Shown here one piece after another: positions 48,608 through 55,811 of a stretch of 64,000 nucleotides of DNA (positions are counted from its first letter, which is position 1; every line of letters starts with the position of its first letter). The position numbers and the translations under genes are program-made. Source of the DNA: a virus; the IMG/VR virus record IMGVR_UViG_3300000176_000001; one strand, written 5' to 3'. The notes under the pieces are model-generated. The model saw only the letters and a program-made list of their open reading frames with translations, did not search any database and was not told where the DNA came from.

Positions 48608-49212
48608 TGGCAAATTATTTCACACAAATTGCAGCTGGTGGATCTGACTCCGGTATAACACCTAATCAGACTCAGGATGCCCGTGACTGGTACAGGAACT
48701 CGGCGAGCGATCTGTCTTCGCGTAATGTAAAGCCAGAGAGACTAATGACCGACAAGGATAATGTCGTCAATAAGATCGATATTAAGTCGATCGGTAAGAT
48801 GTATATGTTCTTTTATGATCCAAAGCACAAAGATACTCTACCATTCTATGATACGTTTCCATTGGTATTTCCAATTGGATTTAAGTCGGATGGATTCTTG
48901 GGGATTAACCTTCACTATTTGCCTCCTATGTTGAGGGCAAAGCTAATGGATGCATTATACCAAACTGCTAATAACAAGAAGTATGACGACTCGACTAAAT
49001 TGAGAATATCTTATGAGATCTTACAGAGCTCATCAAAGTTTAAGCACTTTGCACCTTGCTTGAAGCATTATTTGTGGGATCACGTGCAGGGCAATAAATA
49101 CCTATATGTGCAGCCTAAGAATTGGGACACTGCACTGATGCTACCGCTTCAGAGATTTAAGAAATCAACTGTGGCGAGCATTTACAAAGACTCTCTCAGT
49201 AAGGTAAGATAA
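48607..49212 (+). CDS. gp2: DNA end protector gp2
   Basis: GKMYMFFYDPKHKDTLPFYDTFPL...GFLGINLHYLPP..RA. Confidence 0.93.
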   Translation: MANYFTQIAAGGSDSGITPNQTQDARDWYRNSASDLSSRNVKPERLMTDKDNVVNKIDIKSIGKMYMFFYDPKHKDTLPFYDTFPLVFPIGFKSDGFLGINLHYLPPMLRAKLMDALYQTANNKKYDDSTKLRISYEILQSSSKFKHFAPCLKHYLWDHVQGNKYLYVQPKNWDTALMLPLQRFKKSTVASIYKDSLSKVR

Positions 49213-50000
49213 TGGCATTTAACATATCATCTTTTAACTCAAATATAGCTAGATATGGAGTATTGCAGAACAATAAGTTCTTCATAGTCATGTCATCGCC
49301 TCAATTAATCAGAGAGACTGTATGGAATAGGGGCGCAGGTATTGACGTTAATGGTATTGAGAGACTTATACAATTTAGAGCTGAGCAGGCAAGACTCCCA
49401 GGCGTTTTATTACAGACAAATGATGTAAGGAGATATGGCCTAGGTGTCAATGAAAAGATGCCTTTTAATGCCCAGTTTACAGACACCAGTTTTACATTCC
49501 TAGCTGATTCTAATGGATCAATCTATAGATATTTCTATGCTTGGATGACATCAGTTGTTGATTTTACAGGAACACTATTAAACTACTCTGTTCCAACTTA
49601 TACGACAAACTATAAAGATGATTATGTTAGTGACATCGATATATTTGTTTTTGATAACTATGGTCTATTAACAAAGCAAGTCACGTTCTATGACGCATTT
49701 CCTAATAGTCTAAATGATATTAACTTGGACTGGGGTAATAATAACTCACTGATGAAAGTGACAGTTGGATTTACATTTAAGAATTGGTCAGTAGATCAAG
49801 TGGACATCACTGGTGGAGGTGGTAGTATTAATTTTGACACTCTTGTAAGAGCATTCTCATCTCCATCATCAGCAGGATATGTTGTAGGAAGTGCATTAAC
49901 GAGTTTAATTAGTGGGTCATCAGATTATGGTTATAACACTGCATATAGCCAACGCGGTTCTTATGGATTTGCAGATCAAACACTAGATCCAAACTTTTAA
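49212..50000 (+). CDS. gp54: Baseplate tail-tube initiator gp54 (tail-tube fold)
   Basis: YKDDYV..I.I...DAFP......LDW......KVTVGFTF; synteny gp2-gp54-gp26. Confidence 0.75.
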   Translation: MAFNISSFNSNIARYGVLQNNKFFIVMSSPQLIRETVWNRGAGIDVNGIERLIQFRAEQARLPGVLLQTNDVRRYGLGVNEKMPFNAQFTDTSFTFLADSNGSIYRYFYAWMTSVVDFTGTLLNYSVPTYTTNYKDDYVSDIDIFVFDNYGLLTKQVTFYDAFPNSLNDINLDWGNNNSLMKVTVGFTFKNWSVDQVDITGGGGSINFDTLVRAFSSPSSAGYVVGSALTSLISGSSDYGYNTAYSQRGSYGFADQTLDPNF

Positions 50001-50022: not shown

Positions 50023-50727
50023 ATGTTACCAAAAACATCCTATCCACAATTTGTGCTAGAAGTTCCAAGCACTAAGCAAAAATTAAACTTTAGGCCTTTT
50101 CTTGTTAAAGAAGAAAAGATTTTATTAATGGCAAAAGACAGTGACCAAGAAAGTGATATACTTCTTTCAATAAAACAGGTCGTTAATAACTGCATATTAG
50201 ATGATTTTGATATCGATATATTATCATTATTTGATCTCGAGTATTTGTTTATTCAGATACGCGCTAACTCAGTAAATGATACCGTCAAGGTATCTTATAA
50301 AGATAAAGAAGACGAGAAGATCTATGACTTTGATATTAACCTGAAAAAAATCAATATTATATTTCCAGAAAATGTAAAAAATATTATAAAGATCACTAGC
50401 ACTTCTGGAATACAGTTAAAATATCCAAAGATAACTCTATATGAAGATAAGGAATTCCTAGAGTCCGGAAATGAGGCATTCTTTCAGCTTATAGTAAGAT
50501 GTGTTGATAAGATCTATGAGGGTGATGAAGTCTATGACTGCTCTCAATATACATTAAAAGAAATAGGTGAATATTTAGAGAATCTAGATGTTAAGACATT
50601 CGAGCAGGTCAGAGAATTTATGTCAAATCAGCCAAAGATGTCTTATATTATAAAATATAAGAATTTAAAGGGAAGCGACAGGGAGATCGAGTTAACGACA
50701 CTATCTGATTTTTTTACGCTGCGCTGA
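50023..50727 (+). CDS. gp26: Baseplate hub assembly protein gp26
   Basis: FRPFLVKEEKILLMA...FDLEYLF..IRA.SV; ends LSDFFTLR. Confidence 0.92.
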   Translation: MLPKTSYPQFVLEVPSTKQKLNFRPFLVKEEKILLMAKDSDQESDILLSIKQVVNNCILDDFDIDILSLFDLEYLFIQIRANSVNDTVKVSYKDKEDEKIYDFDINLKKINIIFPENVKNIIKITSTSGIQLKYPKITLYEDKEFLESGNEAFFQLIVRCVDKIYEGDEVYDCSQYTLKEIGEYLENLDVKTFEQVREFMSNQPKMSYIIKYKNLKGSDREIELTTLSDFFTLR

Positions 50728-50900
50728 ACCACAATAATCTAGAGAATTACTATACAACAATATTCTCATTGGCTCAGCACCATAAATACTCAATAAATGA
50801 AGTAGAGAATCTTATACCATTCGAGCGCGACCTCTACGTAGAGATGATAATGCGACACCTCAAAGAGGTGGAAGAACAGAGGAAACAGGCGAATGGCTAA
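50709..50900 (+). CDS. gp51: gp51-like hub assembly protein in the -1 frame of gp26 (absent from the ORF track)
   Basis: Manual translation FFYAALNHNNLENYYTTIFSLAQHHKYSINEVENLIPFERDLYVEMIMRHLKEVEEQRKQANG*, with the QHHKYS..E.EN.IP.ER..Y signature; no ATG upstream of the conserved part. Confidence 0.85.
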   Translation, partial: FFYAALNHNNLENYYTTIFSLAQHHKYSINEVENLIPFERDLYVEMIMRHLKEVEEQRKQANG

Positions 50901-51402
50901 GTTTACAAAACCAGATGATCAAAATACTGATCCTGCTCCAGTTGCACCCGCGCCAGCTCCTGCACCAGCAGTTACAGTAATTGATGTGAATAACAATAAC
51001 CAAAACTCTTCAGTTATAGCACAACAGACTGTTCAAATGGCTTCTGTTCAAGCTACTGCGCAGGCGCAGGCATCAGTGGGTCTAGCGCAGACATCTATCG
51101 ATAAAGAGATTGTAGATGAACAGATAAAGCAAGAAGAAGAGCATTGGGTAAAGGCATATTGGCGCCCAGCAATGGGATGGCTCTATATGGGAATATGCTT
51201 TATGGACTTTATAGGATTCCCACTAATTACCATGTTCTTACCTGTTATATTTAAAGGTCTCGGTGTACAATTTACATATGCTCCATGGCAAAGCCTAACA
51301 TTATCCAATGGTGGATTAATTCACTTGGCATTTGGCGCAATTCTTGGTGTCACAAGCTTCATGCGTGGACAAGAAAAGTTGGCAAAGATAAATGGCCAGT
51401 AA
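50893..51402 (+). CDS. Putative 3TM holin-family membrane protein
   Basis: HWVKAYWRPAMGWLYM, hydrophobic segments, HLAFGAILGV...RGQEK. Confidence 0.75.
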   Translation: MAKFTKPDDQNTDPAPVAPAPAPAPAVTVIDVNNNNQNSSVIAQQTVQMASVQATAQAQASVGLAQTSIDKEIVDEQIKQEEEHWVKAYWRPAMGWLYMGICFMDFIGFPLITMFLPVIFKGLGVQFTYAPWQSLTLSNGGLIHLAFGAILGVTSFMRGQEKLAKINGQ

Positions 51403-53344
51403 AGACCCAAATAGTATTAACTGGTTAGGACGAAAGTACTCTATAACTGACGAGGGTCACGTAGTAGACGAACTCAATAATAAGATAGGCGGCGGAATGG
51501 CCGACACTATCAAAGAGCAAATAGCTATACAACAAGCCGATGCTCAAGAGTCCAAAGCCACTAAGAAACAAGAGGCGCCTGCACAACTAGAGCAGCCGAA
51601 ATCGCAAGATAATACTAAAACACCTCTTCCAACAAAGGAAGGAGGTGCACTAGGAGCATTTGGTAGGGCGGCTAGGGCAGTAAACAATAAAATATTCGCT
51701 ACTATGTTCCCTAGACTTTCAGGTCTATTAAAAGAACTAGACACAGATATATCTGAGACGAATAGAGCTAGCGATAAGCTAGACAATAGTATGCAGGGTG
51801 TCTCAGAGCAGCTAAATGAGACTAATAATCTACTAGCTCAATTAAATAATCAAATGACCAAGATGCTTGGTCTACTTGGACAAATATTAAGTAAAGGTGG
51901 TACATCTTCTGGATCATCGTCTTCTGGTGGAAGTATGGCTTCCGCATTTATAGGTGGATTATTAGGTATAGGCGCTGTAGCTGCAATTCCATACATACAA
52001 AAATGGTTAAGTGGTGATAATAAGCCAAATGATATAACTCCAGCATCTGATATCACACCTCCTATAGCAGAGCCACCACCTCCAGTAATCCCAACACCTC
52101 AAGTTCCAGAAAAAAGATCTGACGCTGAGAGGGCGGACACAAATATACGGCTTGCCTCTATACAATCTGATGATACAGCGCAGAGACAGATGGCTGCTAC
52201 GAGGGAGTTTGAGTCTGGATCTTCTGAGATTATAAGCACATATAGCAATATGAACTCCGAGCAGCAATCAAAGGCTGGAGGTCTAGACACTATATTAAAT
52301 TCTTATAAGAGTAATATAGGAAAGAAGTATGGCGTAAGCAGCTTTGCTATGAGAATGTCAGACTATACTACCCAAGAAGGTCAACTTAAGCCATCGTTTG
52401 AGGCGGGTGTAGATGATAAAAAGCCAGTAAATACCGCGAGTGCAGCTCTTGAGGAACTCAAGACAACTTCCGAGAGTTCAAATAGAGACTTAAAGATAGA
52501 TGCCGAGAAAATATCTTTTAACGCAGATGGAATATTATTTAAACAATCTGGAGGTGAAGATACGGAACAGCCTGGTTCTTTTGGAAGTGGAACGACACCA
52601 GAAAGTGGTTATAATTCACCGGGTGGATTCTTCCCAGTACCTAAACCTGAACTTGCCACTGTAAAGTCTAAAGGAGGAGCCTCTGCTCAAGTCGCGGTAA
52701 AGTATAAAGAGAGATTCCAAGGCCTTGTAGACTATCTAGATAACACAAATCCTGGTTATATTAAGGTGCTAGGGGGATACAATAACAGGCCAAATGTTAA
52801 TAATCCTTCTGTACCTAGTTGGCATGCATACGGAGCCGCACTAGATATTAATCCAAGTGAAAATCCAAATGGCTCAACAAAGACTACTCTTCCTCCAGGA
52901 ATAGGAATGGTAGCAAAGAGTTTTGGCTTAGGCTGGGGCATGAATTGGAAAAGTGTAAAAGACCCAATGCACTTCTCTGCTGCACCAAATGAAGGTGGAA
53001 CCGGAGATATATTTGTTCCTAGTTCAACCGGTGGATCTGGAACAGAGACTCAGTCACAACAAACACCTAATTTTGTAAGGCCTACAATAACCCAAGGTAC
53101 TAATCTTGCTGCAGCTACATCTATATCGAGCTCGACGGCACCAAGTTCAGCACCATCACAAACAACCACTCCTGTAAAATCATCCCCACCAACAACACCA
53201 ACTGGTCCAGGAGCTCCAGCTAAACTAAGGGACTCAAATGTAGTCGGTTTAGTCGAGCCACCTGACGCCCACGCCATGTATCCAGTATGGTTTGGTCCAG
53301 CAATAAGTCCAAAATATAATAATAGACACGACGAAGTAAGATAA
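51392..53344 (+). CDS. Tape-measure/hub-like protein with M15-family peptidoglycan peptidase domain
   Basis: Coiled coil and hydrophobic segment; GGYNNR...SWHAYGAALDINP...WGMNW...DPMHF. Confidence 0.75.
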   Translation: MASKDPNSINWLGRKYSITDEGHVVDELNNKIGGGMADTIKEQIAIQQADAQESKATKKQEAPAQLEQPKSQDNTKTPLPTKEGGALGAFGRAARAVNNKIFATMFPRLSGLLKELDTDISETNRASDKLDNSMQGVSEQLNETNNLLAQLNNQMTKMLGLLGQILSKGGTSSGSSSSGGSMASAFIGGLLGIGAVAAIPYIQKWLSGDNKPNDITPASDITPPIAEPPPPVIPTPQVPEKRSDAERADTNIRLASIQSDDTAQRQMAATREFESGSSEIISTYSNMNSEQQSKAGGLDTILNSYKSNIGKKYGVSSFAMRMSDYTTQEGQLKPSFEAGVDDKKPVNTASAALEELKTTSESSNRDLKIDAEKISFNADGILFKQSGGEDTEQPGSFGSGTTPESGYNSPGGFFPVPKPELATVKSKGGASAQVAVKYKERFQGLVDYLDNTNPGYIKVLGGYNNRPNVNNPSVPSWHAYGAALDINPSENPNGSTKTTLPPGIGMVAKSFGLGWGMNWKSVKDPMHFSAAPNEGGTGDIFVPSSTGGSGTETQSQQTPNFVRPTITQGTNLAAATSISSSTAPSSAPSQTTTPVKSSPPTTPTGPGAPAKLRDSNVVGLVEPPDAHAMYPVWFGPAISPKYNNRHDEVR

Positions 53345-53345
53345 C

Positions 53346-55811
53346 ATGGATAATTTTAAGGCTGCTGCTAATGAAGATACTTTATCAGATGTAAGTACGT
53401 CAATGGCGTCACTAGACGCGTCTCTGAATGTTGTTACTGAGAAATTTGACCAGGTATTTCAGGATAATAAGAGAACTTTTACAAAAGCGGATGATCATGC
53501 TCAGGACTATGTCGGGGCATTTAGAATTGTAAATGAGACTCTTAGACAAATAGTCAATAAGCAAGTTCAGGCAGTCGATATTTTAACTTCTATCAATAAT
53601 GCCGAAGATGATAGTAAAAACCTATTAGATATATTAGGCACGAAGCTCAGAGATAAGTTAAAAGAGAGAGAAAAAGCTAAAGAAAAAGCTAAAGAAGAAG
53701 AAAAAGCCAAAGAAGAAGAAAAAGAGCGCGAGAAAGAACGTGAGAGAGAAAAAGAGCGTGAGAGAGAGCGTGCAAATGCAGAAGAAGAGAAGAAATCTAA
53801 TGAAAAGAGACAAAAAGACCTAAAAGAAGAGAACGAAAAGGCCTCTAAAGAGAGAGAAGATAAAAATAAGGCTAGAGAACCTAGACCGGTCGAGAGGGTT
53901 ACAAAGGATAATGCAGCTAAGGTCGAGAAGCAAGTTGAGAAGATTGATGAAATTACTGATGATAGTGGAAGATTTAGATATAATCCCGAATTAGATCGTT
54001 GGGTTGATCAATATAAAGGTAGAGGTGGCGGTCATATTATATCTGATGCTACAGCGGCAGACTTAGGGCTTGAGGATAGACCGTCTATAAAAAGAAGATT
54101 GGCTGCTGGCGAAGATGTAAATGCGCACGGGACACGAGTTGCGCCTCCTCCACCACCCAAGACTGCTGCTCCAGTTACTACTCCCGAGTTTAGAAAGCCA
54201 CCTGGTGTTTTTAATAAGTATGTCCCAAAAGCCGTTGGGGCAACTGCAGAAGTATTAACGTACGTAGCTGCTTATGAACTTTTAAAAGACACGATAGTCA
54301 CTATAATAGAGATTGCAACGCTAGCTGCGGATAAAGATCCGAATTTAAAAGACGATTCTATAAAGAAAATAGCAATACTTACTAGAGAGTATGGACTAGC
54401 TGCAGTTGGGTTTACAGTAGCTATAGTTGTAGATAGTTTAATAGGAACATTAGTAGGCGCGGCTGCTGGAGCCGGTGTCGGTGCTTTAGCAGGACTAATT
54501 GCTGGTTTACTAGCCGCTATGACGTCGGTGGAGATTGTAAATCACTTCTCTAGTGAAGAGGATATGGTAAACTGGATTATAATTAGTATAAAGAAAGCTC
54601 TAGTCGCAGCAGGTCTGGGTGATAGTAATGATGAAGAGGATATTAGAAAATACTCAGAGGCTTTAGGCAAAGAATTAAATGATGTAAAGAATTTAAAGAG
54701 AGAAGACTTCGTTCCTAATGATCCTCTAGAAGGACCAGGAGGTGAGAACTATCGATACTTCCGTGAAGGTGGTATATCGGATGGTCCCGAGAGTGGATAT
54801 ACAGCTACTCTTCACGGAAAAGAGCTTATCATACCTCTTGAGGCAGATGGATCACTATCGCTTAGAAGCTTAGAGTTCAATGCAAGAAATATAGAGTTTA
54901 ATGCTAAATCTTACATATTCGATACAGGAAATGACAATTTAAATAATCCTATAGGAGGTAGCACCGGGGGAACACCAGGTAGTTTTTCTGGCGGATCGAC
55001 AGGTGGAATGTCAGGGCTAGGTAGAATATCAGCATCAATAAACAATAGCGGAGGTATAACACCTCAGTCTGGAATATCCCCGGGGACTACACCATCTAGT
55101 GGAGGGGGTGGTATGACCCCAATTGACACAAATATAAAGAGCACTCCATTTAGTGGCAGTCAGGGCGACTTCTATAGCAAGATGTATAACTCAGTTTTTG
55201 CAGCGGCTAAAGCTAAGGGACTTCCTAATCCTGAAGTCATAGCACAGCTCGGAGCGTCTCAGAGTGCCGTAGAGACTGGTTACGGTCAGCATATGGTTGG
55301 CAATAATGCTTTTGGAATCAAGGGTCAGGGAACCGCTGGAACTGTTCAAGCAATGACATCAGAGGTTATTGGCGGGCAAACAGCTGGAATGTCACAGGGA
55401 TTTGCCGCTTATAATAGTATTGAGGAGTCTGCGGCTGGTTATGTAGACTTTATATCAAATAATCCTAGATATAAAAACGTACTGGCAGCTACAGATATTA
55501 GCAGCGCTGCTATGGCTATAGCAGCTGCCGGATACGCTACAGACCCTAACTATGCACAAAAGATATACAATATAGCTAATAAATCCGGAACACTAGTAGC
55601 TTCAAATCAAGGAAATGGTAGTATCATGAATAGCGCTGCTGCAGCCGATGTCGTGTACAAAGCTAAACAACAGCAGAGTAGAGGTGGTGATAAAACAGCT
55701 GATTTTAGTTTAAAGGATACAACGAGTGGAGAATCTAAGATTCCTGAAACTACTTTTATCTGGCAGGATATGCCATTAACTGAGAGACTAATCGGCGTAA
55801 CTCATTCATAA
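53346..55811 (+). CDS. Tape-measure-like protein with GH73 (FlgJ-like) glucosaminidase domain
   Basis: E/K/R-rich helix; GAAAGAGVG hydrophobic stretch; GGISDGPESGY..LHGKELIIPL; QSAVETGYG..NNAFGIKG...YATDPNYAQKI. Confidence 0.8.
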   Translation: MDNFKAAANEDTLSDVSTSMASLDASLNVVTEKFDQVFQDNKRTFTKADDHAQDYVGAFRIVNETLRQIVNKQVQAVDILTSINNAEDDSKNLLDILGTKLRDKLKEREKAKEKAKEEEKAKEEEKEREKEREREKERERERANAEEEKKSNEKRQKDLKEENEKASKEREDKNKAREPRPVERVTKDNAAKVEKQVEKIDEITDDSGRFRYNPELDRWVDQYKGRGGGHIISDATAADLGLEDRPSIKRRLAAGEDVNAHGTRVAPPPPPKTAAPVTTPEFRKPPGVFNKYVPKAVGATAEVLTYVAAYELLKDTIVTIIEIATLAADKDPNLKDDSIKKIAILTREYGLAAVGFTVAIVVDSLIGTLVGAAAGAGVGALAGLIAGLLAAMTSVEIVNHFSSEEDMVNWIIISIKKALVAAGLGDSNDEEDIRKYSEALGKELNDVKNLKREDFVPNDPLEGPGGENYRYFREGGISDGPESGYTATLHGKELIIPLEADGSLSLRSLEFNARNIEFNAKSYIFDTGNDNLNNPIGGSTGGTPGSFSGGSTGGMSGLGRISASINNSGGITPQSGISPGTTPSSGGGGMTPIDTNIKSTPFSGSQGDFYSKMYNSVFAAAKAKGLPNPEVIAQLGASQSAVETGYGQHMVGNNAFGIKGQGTAGTVQAMTSEVIGGQTAGMSQGFAAYNSIEESAAGYVDFISNNPRYKNVLAATDISSAAMAIAAAGYATDPNYAQKIYNIANKSGTLVASNQGNGSIMNSAAAADVVYKAKQQQSRGGDKTADFSLKDTTSGESKIPETTFIWQDMPLTERLIGVTHS

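Follow-up and report, generated by a model that had tools for sequence, protein, structure and literature searches.

A probable gp26/gp51-type tail assembly chaperone gene with a predicted −1 frameshift in an uncultured T4-superfamily phage

One of the questions raised by the DNA analyzed here, a stretch of 64,000 nucleotides (the window) whose source is an uncultured phage of the T4 superfamily, regards how this virus makes its counterpart of T4 gp51. A gp26-like open reading frame (ORF) is followed directly by a gp51-like sequence in the −1 frame that lacks an early ATG. A preliminary description of the locus, made from the letters and their ORFs, suggested that the two are fused by a programmed −1 ribosomal frameshift and that the pair, lying upstream of tape-measure-like genes, may be the T4-superfamily equivalent of the lambda G/GT proteins. 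In this work we looked at the two frames, at their relatives in cultured and uncultured phages and at predicted protein structures. These data establish the sequence anatomy of the locus and how well it is conserved, the homology of the two parts, and the contrast between one gene here and two genes in T4.

Two reading frames at the end of the gp26-like gene

The gp26-like ORF occupies positions 50023 to 50727 on the plus strand and codes for 234 amino acids, ending at a TGA stop in the 0 frame (50725-50727). Direct reading of its 3' end gives CTA TCT GAT TTT TTT ACG CTG CGC TGA, which contains the heptamer T TTT TTT at 50709-50715 in the X XXY YYZ phase of a slippery site. Immediately 5' of the heptamer there is a TGA in the −1 frame (50706-50708), which means that the open part of this frame starts precisely with the slip site. 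The heptamer and the upstream TGA had both been pointed out in the preliminary description, and they are found where it placed them. The −1 frame remains open from 50709 to 50897 and is closed by a TAA at 50898-50900, which gives an extension of 63 codons plus the stop (50709-50900, plus strand). Its first ATG is codon 46, the TTG at 50769 (codon 21) is the sole canonical start ahead of that ATG, and the CTG at 50724 encodes Leu6 of the extension; the earlier statement that no ATG precedes the conserved residues of this frame, with CTG 50724 and TTG 50769 as the only near-cognate starts, is accurate. Each part is present in a single copy within the window. Judged from the sequence, the combination of such a heptamer with a −1-frame extension is far beyond what chance would give.

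Analysis of the protein families shows that both frames belong together. The 0-frame ORF matches the Pfam family PF12322 (T4_baseplate) over residues 8-231 with an E-value of 4.6e-51 and 174 bits, where the cut-off is 24.5, and it matches phrog_150 ('baseplate hub') with an E-value of 5.3e-54. The −1 ORF matches phrog_634 ('baseplate hub assembly catalyst') with an E-value of 6.6e-24 and aligns with residues 200-246 of T4 gp51, so the gp51 homologue that had been proposed in this frame is indeed recognizable as one. In phrog_150 the 0-frame ORF covers columns 7-234 of 282 and the −1 ORF covers the last 52 columns (231-282); one profile family therefore runs across both frames. A match to PF12322 above the cut-off, a gp51-type extension and a T4-type baseplate and tail neighbourhood, which we used as tests for the T4 gp26/gp51 family, are all present at this locus. 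The best cultured relatives are cyanophages, with 37% identity to the gp26-like protein of the window. Matches in BFVD came from the same family only, under 'baseplate hub' names, and a sequence-profile search of the PDB with the gp26-like protein gave no match.

We consider it very likely that one gene yields two forms of a gp26/gp51-type tail assembly chaperone by a −1 ribosomal slip. Most ribosomes would read from 50023 to 50727 and produce the 234-residue short form (TAC-N, gp26-like). A minority would slip back by one base, with two tRNA-Phe re-pairing on the UUU UUU of U UUU UUU (50709-50715), and would go on in the −1 frame to 50900, producing a long form of 292 residues (TAC-NC, which corresponds to gp51). 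The predicted long form would consist of the shared residues 1-231 followed by the 61 residues of a helical tail, with the junction peptide ...LSDFFYAALNHNNLENYY. By analogy with lambda G/GT and T4 gp26/gp51, the tape measure and the tube-initiation complex would be the joint targets of the two forms, both of which would be missing from the finished virion. The occurrence of the slip, its ratio and the chaperone role are what we infer from the sequence data.

One can ask what would stimulate such a slip. RNAalifold on 56 loci found no conserved RNA structure downstream of the heptamer, folds of single sequences in this region were weak and inconsistent, and the alignment holds no Shine-Dalgarno (SD)-like element upstream of the heptamer. 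The sole constant context of the heptamer is the 0-frame stop, which comes 0-3 codons later. With neither a conserved RNA structure nor an upstream SD-like element, only the heptamer and the close stop would be left to promote the slip. One long-range helix of 6 bp, picked by hand, was tried and rejected. It would pair 50725-50730 with 50771-50776 (columns 29-34 and 75-80 of alignment A1), and it is mismatched in the window and barely above the controls, being 88% paired against 85% in shuffled sequences. Some covariation is seen at the pair 32-77 of this helix, which is GC in 32 loci, AU in 11, GU in nine and another combination in four; this pair ties Ser or Asn at residue 7 of the extension to Ala, Val or Ile at residue 22.

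Conservation of the heptamer and the other explanations

We retrieved 80 loci of uncultured relatives whose gp26-like proteins are 41-70% identical to that of the window; one of them runs off its contig and 79 have a readable gene end. All 79 carry an in-phase GAT TTT TTT at a distance of 9-15 nt upstream of the 0-frame stop, and a gp51-like extension follows in the −1 frame in every one of the 76 that have downstream DNA. These 76 loci were scored together with the window and with S-PM2, S-CAM4, phiM19, HTVC008M, RSP15, nt-1 and Bakedbeans. In 84/84 of these scored loci an in-phase T TTT TTY precedes the 0-frame stop by 6-15 nt and the extension is in the −1 frame. The slip site reads TCT TTT TTC in the cyanophage S-PM2 and AAT TTT TTC in the cyanophage S-CAM4, AAT TTT TTT in Sinorhizobium phage phiM19, AGT TTT TTT in Pelagibacter phage HTVC008M, GAT TTT TTT in Ralstonia phage RSP15, and GAT TTT TTC in Vibrio phages nt-1 and Bakedbeans, each followed by an extension in the −1 frame. 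The codon ahead of the two Phe codons is that of Asp, Asn or Ser, depending on the lineage, and its third base is T every time. A near relative (G001), which comes on top of the 84, has the same heptamer and the same −1-frame extension. Alignment of gp26/gp51 junctions across T4-like genomes was the check that the preliminary description had asked for, and the relative frame of the two parts, whose variation among homologues would have spoken against a fusion, is −1 at every junction scored.

The codons of the slip site itself give a more specific signal. In a synonymous-codon test on 54 distinct relatives (alignment A2) the site is GAT TTT TTT in 54/54, whereas elsewhere in this gene 15-43% of the codons at invariant Phe columns are TTC and 14-35% of those at invariant Asp columns are GAC. 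Synonymous codons are frozen at the slip site only. Codons that are frozen here against synonymous variation elsewhere indicate selection on the nucleotides and not on the protein. Both frames are under purifying selection, and the extension is conserved at least as well as the gp26-like part. The proposal of a gp26-gp51 fusion made by a −1 slip gains support from these results: no related locus that we examined has lost the heptamer, its phase or the −1 frame of the extension, and none of the start codons in the extension is conserved.

One alternative is that the extension is a separate small protein, a 'gp51' of 45-58 amino acids, which would be made from its own start at TTG 50769 or CTG 50724 or by termination-reinitiation at the end of the gp26-like ORF. 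The records of S-PM2, phiM19, HTVC008M, nt-1 and RSP15 do annotate a small ORF, and in several lineages an ATG overlaps the 0-frame stop or lies just past it (TGATG in phiM19 and RSP15, TAATG in nt-1, codon 6 in S-PM2). Yet the position of the first ATG varies between codons 5 and 48 among the loci, with no ATG at all in nine of them, and none of the candidate first ATGs is preceded by an SD-like motif. In 48 of the 56 distinct loci there is no ATG, GTG or TTG within the first 14 codons, and two loci (L043 and L044) have none in the entire −1 ORF. Upstream of each candidate start the amino acids are conserved; L6, H8, L11, N13, Y14 and Y15 of the extension show 90-100% conservation while their codons vary at the third base, as is typical of coding sequence, and residue conservation in the −1 frame begins at the heptamer. 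The codon of Leu6 is CTG in 45 loci, CTA in five, TTG in three and TTA in two, so CTG 50724 is not kept as a start, and initiation at CTG or TTG, which had been named as one finding that would overturn the fusion, is not what the alignment points to. A separate small protein also leaves the frozen T at three wobble positions unexplained, and in T4 the extension is the C-terminus of a gp26-like domain. Since the early residues are conserved without canonical starts, independent initiation is a poor explanation for the clade of the window, and we regard it as unlikely. Where an ATG stands at or abuts the 0-frame stop, as in phiM19, RSP15 and nt-1, an extra small protein made by reinitiation is possible; in these distant lineages, and in S-PM2, reinitiation might be an additional route beside the conserved heptamer.

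The two forms could also arise before translation if RNA polymerase added one U on the T-run, so that a fraction of the mRNAs would have the fused frame. A homopolymer of seven T, as found in the clade of the window, speaks for such transcriptional slippage, but the cyanophages, nt-1 and Bakedbeans have just six T and then a C, and six T is short for polymerase slippage. Moreover, every run keeps the X XXY YYZ phase, and its position 7 is T or C only, both of which give Phe codons; this fits re-pairing of tandem tRNA-Phe and is irrelevant to a polymerase. In the literature, the 'other mechanism' for making the two forms is given as two separate genes (PMC10885494). The chance that polymerase slippage explains the locus is therefore small in our estimate. 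The same T-run could reflect an assembly error, as some sequencing chemistries are prone to errors in homopolymers, or the locus could be a decaying gene that was once a single ORF. The same run length and the same frame relation are found in 84 independent loci, including the finished genomes of cultured phages, and the purifying selection on both frames speaks against error and decay alike; this explanation is extremely improbable. The preferred reading is still that of a ribosomal slip on the heptamer.

Two genes in T4 and one gene here

Another question that is raised by this locus is how it relates to T4, where gene 26 (208 amino acids) and gene 51 (249 amino acids) are transcribed divergently. 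Residues 1-201 of T4 gp51 match PF12322 with an E-value of 3.9e-52, the whole of gp51 spans columns 13-280 of phrog_150, and an alignment of T4 gp26 with gp51 gives 20% identity (E-value of 2e-6). By these comparisons T4 gp26 and gp51 are paralogues, gp51 being a gp26-like domain with an additional C-terminal extension. Because gp51 is a gp26 paralogue with an extra C-terminal module, T4 makes the short and the long form from two genes. The preliminary description noted that T4 genes 26 and 51 are treated as separate; it missed that gp51 is a paralogue of gp26 and carries the same extension. Among the complete genomes, S-PM2, phiM19, HTVC008M and nt-1 have one PF12322 gene each and T4 has two (26 and 51). 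It is known that T4 gp26 and gp51 are hub assembly chaperones, as listed in Table 2 of Leiman et al. (2010, PMC3004832), and that gp51 is needed for assembly and absent from the particle (Leiman et al., 2010).

The T4 proteins and those of the window share PF12322 in both forms, a long form that ends in the same C-terminal extension, and a tail and baseplate neighbourhood with homologues of gp2, gp4, gp48 and gp54. They differ in that T4 uses two diverged genes whose products are 20% identical, while in the window the predicted −1 slip would let a single gene make two forms that are identical over their N-terminal part of 231 residues. Another difference is the CxxC...CPxCG motif, which is found in T4, nt-1, RSP15 and Bakedbeans and is absent from the protein of the window. 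The CPxCG part lies near the C-terminus of gp26 in T4, RSP15, nt-1 and Bakedbeans, and T4 has an earlier CxCG too; in T4 these cysteine motifs suggest a zinc ribbon. The gp26-like proteins of the clade of the window lack those cysteines as well.

A pair of chaperones, one short and one long, that serves the assembly of tail and hub is already described in the literature, with recoding as the source of the two forms in most lineages and two separate genes in T4. According to PMC10885494 and PMC12846349, the tail assembly chaperones of T4-like phages were identified by Vladimirov, Gautam and Davidson (2022, Virology 566:9-15). In PMC12846349 this work is the reference given for slippery poly-T sequences in 'TAC-N genes of T4-like phages', and the two-gene solution and the poly-T slip sites are both mentioned in papers that cite it. 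As the citing papers present it, the core idea of a gp26/gp51 frameshift chaperone is already published. The window is therefore another example and not a discovery or a new mechanism, and the G/GT-equivalent idea of the preliminary description, which our data support as a reading, loses its novelty to the 2022 paper as it is cited. If that paper covers only T4 and a few examples, the breadth of the conservation and the absent RNA stimulator would be new.

A wider reading is that the −1 slip on T TTT TTY is the ancestral and by far the most common route in the T4 superfamily, that the two genes of T4 are derived, and that the GenBank 'gp51' ORFs of 45-60 amino acids are mis-annotated ends of fusions. 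We put this forward tentatively, as something that may well turn out otherwise. It would reach over the Kyanoviridae, the KVP40-like Straboviridae, Emdodecavirus, the RSP15-like phages and large uncultured marine and freshwater clades, and hundreds of such small GenBank ORFs would then be ends of a fusion protein. For the annotation of the window, the small 'gp51' ORF is to be joined to gp26 as a 292-residue ribosomal-slippage product. Public records treat the region inconsistently: S-PM2 is given a gp51 of 58 amino acids whose ATG lies past the stop, the S-CAM4 record lacks a feature here, and HTVC008M has an ORF of 45 amino acids from an internal ATG. None of the public records inspected, these three included, holds a joined (slippage) CDS.

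Chaperone-like fold and gene neighbourhood

Long-tailed phages reportedly have a conserved −1 frameshift in their tail assembly chaperone genes, of which lambda gpG/gpGT is the known case, and in phage P2 the E/E+E' tail chaperone frameshift is said to take place on T TTT TTG. The gene of the window is similar to lambda G/GT in having a heptamer a few codons before the stop of ORF1 and an ORF2 in the −1 frame that has no start of its own; a conserved X XXY YYZ near the end of ORF1, followed by a −1-frame ORF2 without a conserved start, is the pattern by which pairs of the lambda G/GT type are recognized. The heptamer is G GGA AAG in lambda, in contrast to U UUU UUU here, and the protein of the window is larger (234 amino acids in two domains), with only its N-terminal domain resembling the classical chaperones. 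With P2 the window has in common a contractile-tailed phage, a T-rich heptamer and a −1 slip, predicted here, in a tail chaperone gene, although the protein families are unrelated as far as tested here.

The model structure of the gp26-like protein was predicted with AlphaFold2 (pLDDT 90, pTM 0.84). Residues 1-93 of the model were compared with 48,161 PDB chains, and the top three matches were 3fgx (Z 8.1), 2ob9 (Z 7.1), which is the HK97 tail assembly chaperone, and 3klu (Z 6.9), which is the Bacillus subtilis prophage protein YqbN; the fourth match drops to Z 5.0. With 2ob9 and 3klu there are 83-84 aligned residues, which is most of the target chains. The identity is 5-12%, and the protein of the window differs from both by its extra C-terminal domain (residues 85-228). 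These matches give moderate support for a tail assembly chaperone fold of the modelled N-terminal domain, as Z-scores of 7-8 are not decisive alone and may reflect a common arrangement. A Foldseek search of the same model against the PDB gave no match with an E-value up to 0.001, and it missed 3fgx, 2ob9 and 3klu. The extension modelled alone is predicted to form a helix, a turn and a long helix, with moderate confidence (pLDDT 71). By analyzing residues 85-228 of the gp26 model (50275-50706) we also found similarity to the peptide-binding C-terminal domains of Hsp40/DnaJ, at Z 3.3-4.0 over about 48 aligned residues; this likeness may be merely a common beta arrangement.

The genes around the locus are homologues of T4 gp4, gp2, the gp54-type tube protein, gp48, gp53, gp5, gp25 and gp6. 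Directly upstream of the gp26-like ORF, at 49212-50000 on the plus strand, lies a gene for a tail-tube-like protein (gp54-type tube initiator) that matches PF23849 (Phage_TTP_2) and phrog_45 (tail tube, E-value of 5.9e-37), and such a gene takes the same position in phiM19, HTVC008M and nt-1. Downstream, two large genes on the plus strand at 51392-55811 code for a protein of 650 amino acids with an M15 peptidase domain and a protein of 821 amino acids with a glucosaminidase domain. By position only, these are the tape-measure candidates of the window; their family matches are to hydrolase domains only, they match no tape-measure PHROG, and tblastn gave no matches between them and the flanks of the relatives. 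The gene at the same position, two places downstream, does match tape-measure PHROGs in HTVC008M (1.1e-11) and phiM19 (1.8e-5). In lambda, the G/GT gene stands between those of the tube and the tape measure, the order that the window would share if its candidates are tape measures. The equivalence with G/GT that had been proposed is supported by the tube-like gene upstream, by the tape-measure gene downstream in the relatives and by the N-terminal domain that resembles the HK97 chaperone. The fold, the gene order and the model of the extension together support a G/GT-like short and long pair, with the binding partners presumed.

A gene for a membrane protein of 169 amino acids (50893-51402, plus strand) separates the chaperone gene from the large tape-measure candidates, and its product matches PF11351 (GTA_holin_3TM) with an E-value of 2.5e-6. 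Its ATG at 50893 overlaps the end of the extension, and small ORFs take the same position in phiM19 and HTVC008M. Further upstream, the gp4-type head completion protein at 48152-48607 matches phrog_218 with an E-value of 3.6e-59, and it also matches the N-terminal domain of TnsA-like endonucleases (PF08722) with an E-value of 1.1e-23.
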